A DNA stretch of 12,229 nt from a virus (taxonomy: Duplodnaviria; Heunggongvirae; Uroviricota; Caudoviricetes), in the IMG/VR virus record IMGVR_UViG_2609459834_000004; one strand, given 5' to 3'. The position numbers and the translations under genes are program-made. Positions 7,631 through 8,154 of the stretch are shown piece after piece. The notes below the pieces were generated by a model. The model worked only from the letters and a program-made list of their open reading frames with translations. It was not told where the DNA came from and searched no databases. Numbering within the stretch: the first letter of the stretch is position 1; each line of letters begins with the position of its first letter.

Positions 7631-8154
7631 ATGTACTCCAATGAAGAAACCAGCGAAATAGCTGCCTTCATTCGTAGTAAACCTTTTTCATCAACGCAGT
7701 AATGGATTCTTTGAAGAGTCGCGATCAATACAACTCACTAATGGAGAGACTTGTCTCACGCATGAGACAAATTTCCCGTTTGATTTAATGGACACTATAG
7801 AGGGACAGAATGCCTTCCTCACTCGAATCACATCAATTAAGGAGGTTCAACATGTTTCATTCCACAAGTCATCAGGCTGTAATTATGGCAGCATCAGTTT
7901 GTGCCAAAGACCTTTTCCGCTTCACTTTGAGCCTGATTCATTTCTACCTGACCGGCTCGCCTCTATCTTTTTAATCCCCGCTTTATCCAAATTGCATTGC
8001 CATAATGCCGACAACACACTGACATTCAAATCCAGACTACCTCCAATAGTCTGACCGTACACCTATATAGTTTTAATTTTCATCAATCCATTTAACTATC
8101 GTTTAATTGTTGTCACATAGGATTCTGCTGTTTTTAACAATACAGGATAATAAG

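Follow-up and report, generated by a model that had tools for sequence, protein, structure and literature searches.

A conserved 40-codon reading frame behind tandem phage-type promoter boxes in a lambdoid prophage, and its possible transcription by infecting phages

The stretch of DNA analysed here (the window) comprises 12,229 nt of IMG/VR record IMGVR_UViG_2609459834_000004 and is part of a lambdoid prophage with its late genes on the minus strand. The gene of an HNH endonuclease (nt 7280–7630, minus strand) and bor/iss (nt 8156–8448, plus strand) are separated in it by a gap of 525 bp, which contains a 40-codon open reading frame (ORF) on the plus strand (nt 7852–7974, stop codon included). 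An earlier note on this DNA, made from the sequence alone, had pointed to the ORF and to the strong Shine-Dalgarno (SD) sequence in front of it, and had seen no function for the gap beyond presumably holding the bor promoter. The gap is in fact more crowded than that, and also holds the remnant of a lysC gene (nt 7922–8050) and two phage-type promoter boxes (nt 7726–7805). The ORF lies directly behind these copies of T7-like and SP6-like promoters, so synthesis of a small helical peptide by the prophage is probably confined to infection by a phage of that kind.

The ORF, its ribosome-binding site and their conservation

The ORF is preceded by the near-consensus SD sequence TAAGGAGGT (nt 7838–7846, core AGGAGG at nt 7840–7845), which stands 5 nt before the ATG (nt 7852–7854), the spacer being TCAAC. 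The frame ends with a TAA at nt 7972–7974 and its translation is MFHSTSHQAVIMAASVCAKDLFRFTLSLIHFYLTGSPLSF, as first given. Its position between the HNH and bor/iss genes, in a frame other than that of an 88-amino-acid ORF at nt 7788–8054, was likewise confirmed. The argument that an SD sequence of this quality is uncommon by chance did not hold. The arrangement AGGAGG-N4-8-ATG occurs twice in the window where 0.46 occurrences are expected, and since 16 of 200 shuffled sequences also reached at least two occurrences, the SD motif alone is not significant.

Conservation was followed in 98 loci that contain the ribosome-binding-site block, namely those of the window and of ten annotated records together with others from IMG/VR contigs. 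The IMG/VR loci were retrieved by the ribosome-binding-site motif; because this motif served as the query, they are no independent test of SD conservation. TAAGGAGGT is also invariant in 10 homologues picked by overall similarity. The conservation of the frame in related prophages, which the earlier note had named as the check to be made, is complete: SD, ATG, length of 40 codons and position of the stop are identical in 98/98 E. coli and Shigella loci, with 23 haplotypes at the nucleotide level and 17 variants of the peptide among them.

The two halves of the ORF vary in different ways among these loci. Within codons 2–23 the variable sites are distributed over the first, second and third codon positions as 10/10/5, and almost all of them are non-synonymous. 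For codons 24–40 the distribution is 1/0/7. This second half faces the lysC remnant, the last 17 codons of which are antisense to the last 17 codons of the ORF, and 7 of the 8 variable sites are synonymous in the ORF and non-synonymous in the antisense lysC frame. The seven third-position sites fall on codon position 2 of lysC, where they give S/L, G/D/S/Y, N/S, S/N, I/T, K/R and K/R. Moreover, internal stops occur in several lysC remnants, and the plus-strand ORF is intact in the same loci. The C-terminal 16 residues are conserved out to Klebsiella prophages; between E. coli and Klebsiella the last 16 codons show four differences, all synonymous. The substitution pattern of codons 24–40 fits selection on the frame of the ORF rather than on the antisense lysC remnant, and codons 2–23 appear to be either unconstrained or diversifying. 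The ORF is under protein-level constraint. The proposal that the strong SD and the 40-codon frame mark a real small gene is therefore supported, by the conservation of the frame and the pattern of its substitutions.

Other candidate frames were rejected. An extension of the peptide to 54 amino acids from an ATG at nt 7810 is interrupted by a stop in 73/98 loci, the 88-amino-acid plus-strand ORF (nt 7788–8054) has its ATG in 9/98 loci only, and a 46-amino-acid minus-strand ORF has its GTG in 25/98 only. The 88-amino-acid frame is open for 65–88 codons or more in most homologues despite the missing start codon.

The product is predicted to be a small peptide with a single helix. The AlphaFold2 model of the E. 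coli peptide consists of one helix spanning residues 2–34 (mean predicted local distance difference test score, pLDDT, 82). The C-terminus had been described as hydrophobic, and this stands in a moderate degree only: the best 15-residue Kyte-Doolittle mean is 1.1–1.35 for the E. coli peptide, against transmembrane-grade values of 2.2–2.5 for three Klebsiella peptides encoded in the same position (see below), to which the scoring of related peptides was confined. No match was found in Pfam or PADLOC for any of the four payload types, nor in PHROGs for two E. coli peptides (best E = 0.22), and protein searches returned the same small family only, with no annotated relatives. RefSeq (PGAP) has no annotation across the ORF, which a single GenBank phage record gives as a hypothetical protein.

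Phage-type promoter boxes and the transcript leader

Promoters used by single-subunit RNA polymerases from phages were scored with a T7 matrix derived from the 17 promoters that the T7 record annotates (leave-one-out natural range 22.0–38.7 bits) and an SP6 matrix built from 11 SP6 promoter sites (22.0–35.0 bits), with 300 shuffled windows as the control. A T7-type box, CAATACAACTCACTAATGGAGAG, occupies nt 7726–7748 (−17 to +6, predicted start G7743) and scores 22.4 bits, the runner-up site in the window reaching 3.1 and the shuffle maximum 16.9. A box of the SP6/Vectrevirus (SP6/K1-5) type, ATTTAATGGACACTATAGAGGGA, follows at nt 7783–7805 (predicted start G7800) with 24.7 bits, against 5.2 for the runner-up and 18.9 for the shuffles. 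Both boxes score within the range of natural promoters and are the sole strong matches in 12 kb on either strand. They lie on the strand of the ORF, 109 and 52 nt upstream of its ATG, with predicted starts at nt 7743 and 7800, 57 nt apart; tandem T7-like promoters within a few hundred bases are thus found here in a lambdoid prophage. By their sequence the boxes at nt 7726–7805 are identified as two promoters for phage single-subunit RNA polymerases.

Counterparts of both boxes occur in virulent phages. The T7-type box shares 21 consecutive bases with a promoter of 39–40 kb contigs encoding a T7-like RNA polymerase (76% identity); the promoter consensus of these contigs, TAATACGACTCACTA(A/T)TGGGAGA, has the same AT at −2/−1 as the prophage box. 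The box also matches promoters of Berlinvirus-type phages, which the Yepe2 record annotates as such. For the SP6-type box the commonest prophage allele is ATTTACTGGACACTATAGAAGGA, present in 61/98 loci. This allele is 23/23 identical to repeats, always on one strand, in 44–45 kb IMG/VR contigs that encode an SP6-like RNA polymerase (84–85% identity), a DNA polymerase, a portal and a capsid protein, and K1-5, K1E, AAPEc6 and further Vectrevirus phages have it at 6–9 places in each genome. In Shigella phage SfIV, box 1 is AATACGACTCACTA, with 14 bases identical to T7 −16 to −3, and box 2 is ATTTAGGTGACACTTTAGAAGG, which equals the SP6 sequence except at −3 and +5 and keeps the GGT of SP6 at −12 to −10. 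Among prophages the differences in box 1 are concentrated in the upstream half (about −17 to −8), between conserved flanks. It is in that same upstream half that the promoters of T7, T3, K11 and SP6 differ from one another.

A 14-bp hairpin on the plus strand (nt 7743–7777) starts at the predicted T7-type +1 and would form the 5′ stem-loop of the transcript. Its folding energy is −15.6 kcal/mol (z = −3.9). Among 10 distinct variants 96.4% of the cells are paired, three pairs show compensatory double changes, and none of 500 shuffles scored as high. On the other strand the 24 G.U cells would be mismatches (C.A), and the hairpin therefore works as plus-strand RNA; the G.U pairs and the covariation together show that the plus strand has a function as RNA. 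In Klebsiella cassettes the first promoter box is followed by the same hairpin, and hairpins likewise come after natural Vectrevirus promoters. Downstream of it, alignment of homologues delimits a conserved 5′ untranslated leader (nt 7806–7837). With only three variable positions in 10 homologues that are 81–100% identical overall, nt 7805–7855, which include the SD, are the most conserved 50 nt of the region. A predicted fold that would partly bury the ribosome-binding site was rejected, being no better than shuffles (z = −0.1). A further hairpin lies upstream of box 1 (nt 7705–7720, plus strand; TTGTCTCTTATAAGAGACAA at nt 3787–3806 of the Klebsiella locus L169), with z = −3.9 in Klebsiella and a non-significant z = −0.2 in E. 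coli. It may insulate the cassette from read-through.

Signals for the host polymerase were sought over nt 7500–8600. No promoter-like site was found on either strand by a sigma-70 scan, a crude consensus scan that also missed the bor promoter. A terminator scan gave three weak terminator-like hairpins, inside the HNH, bor and Rz genes, and none in the cassette. The T7 class II terminator motif ATCTGTT does not occur on the plus strand downstream of the ORF, and an Rfam scan of the whole window matched no family. The window has no ORF of polymerase size, its largest being that of a 577-amino-acid terminase, and no gene for a single-subunit RNA polymerase is present in the annotation of the full EC958 prophage.

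Related cassettes and the prophage setting

Protein searches also led to 38-residue Klebsiella peptides sharing the C-terminus LSLIHFYLTGSPLSF, one of which is on record in 563 index blocks. The Klebsiella gene occupies the same slot, between lysis and packaging genes and on the opposite strand, with flanking genes that vary among prophages. In order, the upstream region comprises a strong hairpin, a variable box 1, the E. coli-like hairpin, box 2, box 3, a weaker box 4 and AAAAAGGAGAATAAATG, with the SD and the start codon. One allele of box 1, AATTAGGGCCCACTATAGAGACC, scores 28.8 bits with a K11 matrix (natural range 25.5–38.7); further alleles are AATTAGGTAGCACTATAGGGAGG, TATTAAGACTCACTATTGGGAAG, AATTAAGACTCACTATAGGAGAC and GATTACAACTCACTAAAGAGACC. 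Box 2, AATAGTGGCGAGTATAGAA, is of the Molineuxvirinae type. It corresponds, with 19-nt identity, to the promoter of Klebsiella Molineuxvirinae of about 45 kb, which carry it at 8–10 places per genome; in pKV-BS375-3.1 it occurs 11 times, on a single strand and for the most part at the ends of genes or in short intergenic gaps. Box 3, TAATGTTACACGAGTA, is of the KP34 type and agrees at 15/16 positions with the strong KP34 promoter TAATGTTACAGGAGTA, which was defined by in vitro transcription and 5′ rapid amplification of cDNA ends (PMC6834552). Its matches include the site mapped in KP34 itself and some 240 related genomes. Box 4, AAATAAGTTACACAATAGAAAT, is SP6-like with 12–14 bits (about nt 3946–3968 in loci L168–L175) and aligns with the SP6-type box of E. 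coli; it may be decayed or aimed at an unsampled phage. Within the 8-kb Klebsiella loci, all matrix matches of at least 12 bits are on the strand of the ORF and within 180 nt upstream of it. Scans of IMG/VR with two of the Klebsiella boxes returned prophages only, and the cognate phages emerged only from blastn against GenBank phages.

The payload itself is exchanged as well. Other Klebsiella prophages carry different peptides, MLEVLNSLAPFAPAINAIVILICSIIAKYYGVLPLPF and MSHIEIIHLIDSYVLLATHIISLIIVCRKLIADLSRRS, behind the same array and a strong SD, and in a Pseudocitrobacter prophage a T7-like box is followed by MTHEKIVKLATAYTMLIGAVINLATHLLNLLTALPQSF. These are all hydrophobic ORFs of 37–38 residues ending at the same stop codon before the lysC remnant, and their SD sequences are equally strong (AAAAAGGAGAATAAATG, CCAAGGAGGTATACATG and GGAGGAGTTATG). 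From end to end the cassette of E. coli can be aligned with that of Klebsiella, in which boxes 2 and 3 form an insertion. Promoters and payloads have been swapped as modules across genera, and since no single podovirus is known to carry promoters from three subfamilies, the cassette is an assembled array and not a fossil.

An exact search for the ribosome-binding-site block in one genome per species gave no match. A second scan of this kind, with the lysC end as query, turned up one further cassette (in Pseudocitrobacter), two lysC ends free of it and one chance match. The two cassette-less ends are in Enterobacter sp. and Pseudescherichia sp. (L197 and L199), and because these have the lysC 3′ end alone, the cassette is an accessory insert. 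In its place they have unrelated sequence and a hairpin resembling a Rho-independent terminator. The two loci are useful negative controls for comparative work.

Within the prophage the gap lies in the late region. The Q antiterminator (nt 11510–11908) is followed by the gene of a 385-amino-acid porin on the plus strand (nt 10163–11320), the holin, lysozyme and Rz/Rz1 genes (nt 9650 down to 8480), bor/iss, the gap, the HNH gene, the small terminase subunit (nt 6660–7163) and the large terminase subunit (nt 4930–6663), after which come portal, protease and capsid genes. The porin gene, between the Q antiterminator and the holin, is placed like nmpC in DLP12 and is a second opposite-strand cargo gene of the late region. 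The 116 bp between the HNH and small terminase genes (nt 7164–7279) have the position of the cos site in HK97/SfIV-type phages; the linear genome of SfIV ends just past the HNH gene.

Most of the gap (nt 7631–8041) is homologous to the stretch from the lysis cassette to the HNH gene in SfIV and related E. coli prophages, with 81–100% identity among the homologues fetched and 87.6% to SfIV; the lambda-type upstream region of bor is confined to about nt 8032–8155. The lysC remnant (nt 7922–8050, minus strand) is the 3′ end of an SfIV/P2-type lysC, a gene for an Rz1-like o-spanin, and PGAP, annotating a genome with 100% identity, gives it the label 'Rz1 lytic protein, incomplete, missing N-terminus'. 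The P2-like lysC of SfIV-type phages, which is intact in SfIV and some E. coli prophages, ends at the equivalent of nt 7922. As just the last 129 nt of the gene survive in the window, the gap is a recombination joint. The truncated gene marks the place where an SfIV/P2-type module running from lysis to HNH meets a lambda/DLP12-type S-R-Rz-bor module, so that the prophage combines a lambda-type lysis cassette that is complete with the dead 3′ end of another, unrelated spanin gene. The segment nt 7631–7930 is present in 632/5426 complete E. coli genomes (about 12%). In some E. coli prophages an insert of about 360 bp with a 64-amino-acid hypothetical gene lies between HNH and the cassette (L004 nt 2194–2388 and L010 nt 1194–1388, minus strand), and thus the slot beside the cassette accepts other small genes. 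The cassette-bearing prophage of EC958 also has hokD, a type I toxin gene (L200 nt 18574–18729); one element can therefore hold two small-toxin-like genes.

A cassette read by infecting phages, and the alternatives

It is probable, in our judgement, that the ORF is the payload of a prophage cassette which is read by the RNA polymerase of an infecting Autographiviridae phage and which the host polymerase is predicted to leave unread. In an uninfected lysogen the cassette, having no recognisable sigma-70 promoter, would be off. A T7-like or SP6/K1-5-like phage that infects the cell would produce its own single-subunit RNA polymerase, and this enzyme would recognise the copy of its own promoter at nt 7726–7748 or nt 7783–7805. 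The resulting transcript would carry the consensus SD and, when started at the T7-type box, would open with a stabilising 5′ hairpin, like T7 late mRNAs. The cell could then be flooded with a helical, moderately hydrophobic peptide of 40 residues, which may harm the membrane or block a step of phage growth, so that the infection aborts and neighbouring lysogens are protected. Transcription by phage enzymes, translation of the ORF, silence in the lysogen, the action and toxicity of the peptide, and protection are what we infer from the arrangement; abortive infection through a membrane-active or inhibitory peptide would be its most economical function.

More tentatively, the cassettes may constitute a defence whose sensor is DNA only. 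A stack of decoy promoters would cover several virulent lineages, in E. coli the T7-like and SP6/K1-5-like ones and in Klebsiella those resembling K11, Molineuxvirinae and KP34, an interchangeable peptide of 37–40 residues would kill the cell or block the infection at the first appearance of the invader's polymerase, and the boxes would be retargeted in an arms race with polymerase specificity. Four features are hard to account for unless infecting phages read the cassette: one array stacks promoters from up to three Autographiviridae subfamilies, the boxes match phages of the respective host genus, allelic retargeting is found mainly in the upstream half of box 1, and payloads are swapped behind a fixed array.

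Several observations weigh against these proposals. Because of its moderate hydrophobicity the E. coli peptide is a weaker candidate for a membrane toxin than the Klebsiella payloads are, and codons 2–23 change nearly only non-synonymously, which could reflect diversifying selection or a plain lack of constraint. The T at −3 in the SfIV box may weaken that box. No podovirus counterpart was found for the box-2 allele of the window itself (AATG at −12 to −9), which turned up only in prophages and two contigs of 120–130 kb. The sigma-70 scan behind the claim of no host promoter is crude, as its failure to find the bor promoter illustrates. There is no evident terminator for a phage polymerase after the ORF, and transcripts could therefore read through into bor or run antisense into lysis genes, in which case RNA rather than the peptide could matter. 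Finally, Chen & Schneider are said to have read such promoter clusters differently in 2006, as satellite-like islands.

The cluster itself very probably belongs to a known type of locus. Chen & Schneider reportedly found in 2006 tandem T7-like promoters in enterobacterial prophage-like islands, in the form of 12 clusters of two or three promoters, with no polymerase gene, in nine enteropathogens. The islands are said to measure 4–13 kb, with promoters transcribing two to five phage-related proteins, and a satellite-like nature was reportedly proposed. The genomes reportedly included O157:H7, Shigella flexneri and CFT073. Because these belong to the groups that carry the cassette, the promoter cluster as a sequence feature has very probably been described already; the clustered T7-group promoters, the enterobacterial prophage-like region and the lack of an own polymerase gene are common to both, and the two are very probably the same locus type. 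What appears to be new beside that work is the consensus SD with a constrained payload of 37–40 codons, the covarying 5′ hairpin, the boxes of KP34 and Molineuxvirinae type, the swapping of payloads and the defence reading. A full-text literature search found no experimental study of such a system.

Parts of the arrangement are familiar from other systems. A late (class III) unit of T7 such as phi10-gene 10 likewise consists of a 23-bp promoter, a stable hairpin at +1 (the phi10 leader has a hairpin after its promoter), a near-consensus SD and a gene. The cassette differs in residing in a temperate lambdoid prophage that has no such polymerase, and in mixing specificities, unlike any single known podovirus. 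With the small membrane peptides of abortive infection and of type I toxins, of which the exclusion of T4 by hok/sok is an example, it shares a tiny helical or hydrophobic peptide, a mobile element and, as proposed, silence until infection. The release would be different, being brought about by transcription from the invader's promoter and not by the loss, once the host is shut off, of an antisense RNA or antitoxin, and in Pfam, PADLOC and PHROGs the peptides have no sequence similarity to known toxins. The Rfam scan of the window turned up no antisense antitoxin RNA, although no search was aimed at antisense promoters; transcription triggered by the phage polymerase requires no antitoxin. Phage transcription is also sensed by the late promoters of P4 via Ogr of P2, in the induction of phage-inducible chromosomal islands (PICI) and Staphylococcus aureus pathogenicity islands (SaPI), and by engineered 'triggered suicide' cassettes of Lactococcus. 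In these, too, resident genes are wired to a promoter that is fired only by an incoming phage. Those systems, however, use phage activators of the host polymerase or are man-made, whereas the sensor proposed here is a bare stack of promoters. Lambda bor and similar morons occupy the same slot of the genome as small independent genes opposite to the late operon. In contrast to the 40-codon ORF, for which the crude scan gave no evident host promoter, bor has one and is expressed in the lysogen.

Each of the other explanations that we have weighed leaves part of the evidence unexplained. It is unlikely that the cassette serves the element rather than the defence of the host, the tandem promoters switching on, amplifying or mobilising a satellite or hitch-hiker during T7-like infection. 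The promoters are real, the missing terminator after the ORF makes long read-through transcripts possible, and Chen & Schneider 2006 is cited for prophage-like islands that include the sit island. No sit genes, which would link the cassette to those islands, are present beside it in EC958. Conservation downstream of the promoters in E. coli, Klebsiella and Pseudocitrobacter is limited to the ORF of 37–40 codons and about 110 nt of lysC remnant, the farther neighbours (bor, antisense lysis genes, unrelated ORFs) differ, and any read-through would run antisense to the lysis genes next to it. Transfer of the element is hard to envisage, since host DNA is degraded by T7-type phages and packaging is limited to DNA that has the phage's own ends. 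A moron expressed in the lysogen like bor, from an unrecognised host promoter and with the phage-type promoters secondary or incidental, seems improbable to us. The ORF adjoins bor in the classic moron slot between lysis and packaging genes, it is constrained and has a strong SD, and the sigma-70 scan is crude; that scan nevertheless found no promoter, and a moron would leave unexplained both the two to four boxes for different phage polymerases, retargeted among prophages and host genera, and the hairpin that begins exactly at the T7-type +1.

Quite improbable is an explanation in which the RNA or its transcription is the functional part, as a mimic of a replication origin, a sink for polymerase or an antisense RNA, with an incidental ORF. 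The primary origin of T7 is a pair of tandem promoters, and the boxes resemble T7 phi1.1A and phi1.1B (5848 and 5923), which precede a 42-amino-acid gene; the hairpin is conserved as RNA, and the N-terminal half of the ORF is unconstrained. Translation is nevertheless indicated by the invariant SD and ATG, the fixed length of the ORF and the synonymous-only variation in codons 24–40. Furthermore, lysC as an antisense target is a dead remnant in most E. coli copies, and a single-copy promoter could hardly titrate an abundant polymerase. That the locus is a passively carried, non-functional scrap of podovirus DNA gained by recombination is the least credible explanation and, we consider, very improbable. 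Lambdoid prophages are indeed mosaic, and a recombination scar, the lysC remnant, lies at the same spot, but blastn of the 411-bp region found no podovirus homologue beyond matches of promoter length. Such a fossil would not be expected to set promoters of three Autographiviridae subfamilies side by side, to show purifying selection on the ORF and compensatory changes in the hairpin, or to be found in 632 E. coli genomes and, for one Klebsiella peptide, in 563 index blocks.

If transcription of the cassette by infecting phages is borne out, the locus would represent an anti-phage device of about 250 bp that needs no sensor protein and turns the private RNA polymerase of the Autographiviridae against them. 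Direct transcription by the invader's enzyme would be a new principle for triggering immunity, and it would explain a 20-year-old observation, the orphan T7-like promoters in enterobacterial genomes. Strains in which T7, SP6 or KP34 polymerase is expressed may fire hidden genes if they are wild isolates. The cassette is widespread in prophages of Klebsiella pneumoniae and present in about 12% of complete E. coli genomes, and its boxes may aid in predicting the host range of therapeutic phages of the T7, K1-5, K11 and KP34 types.

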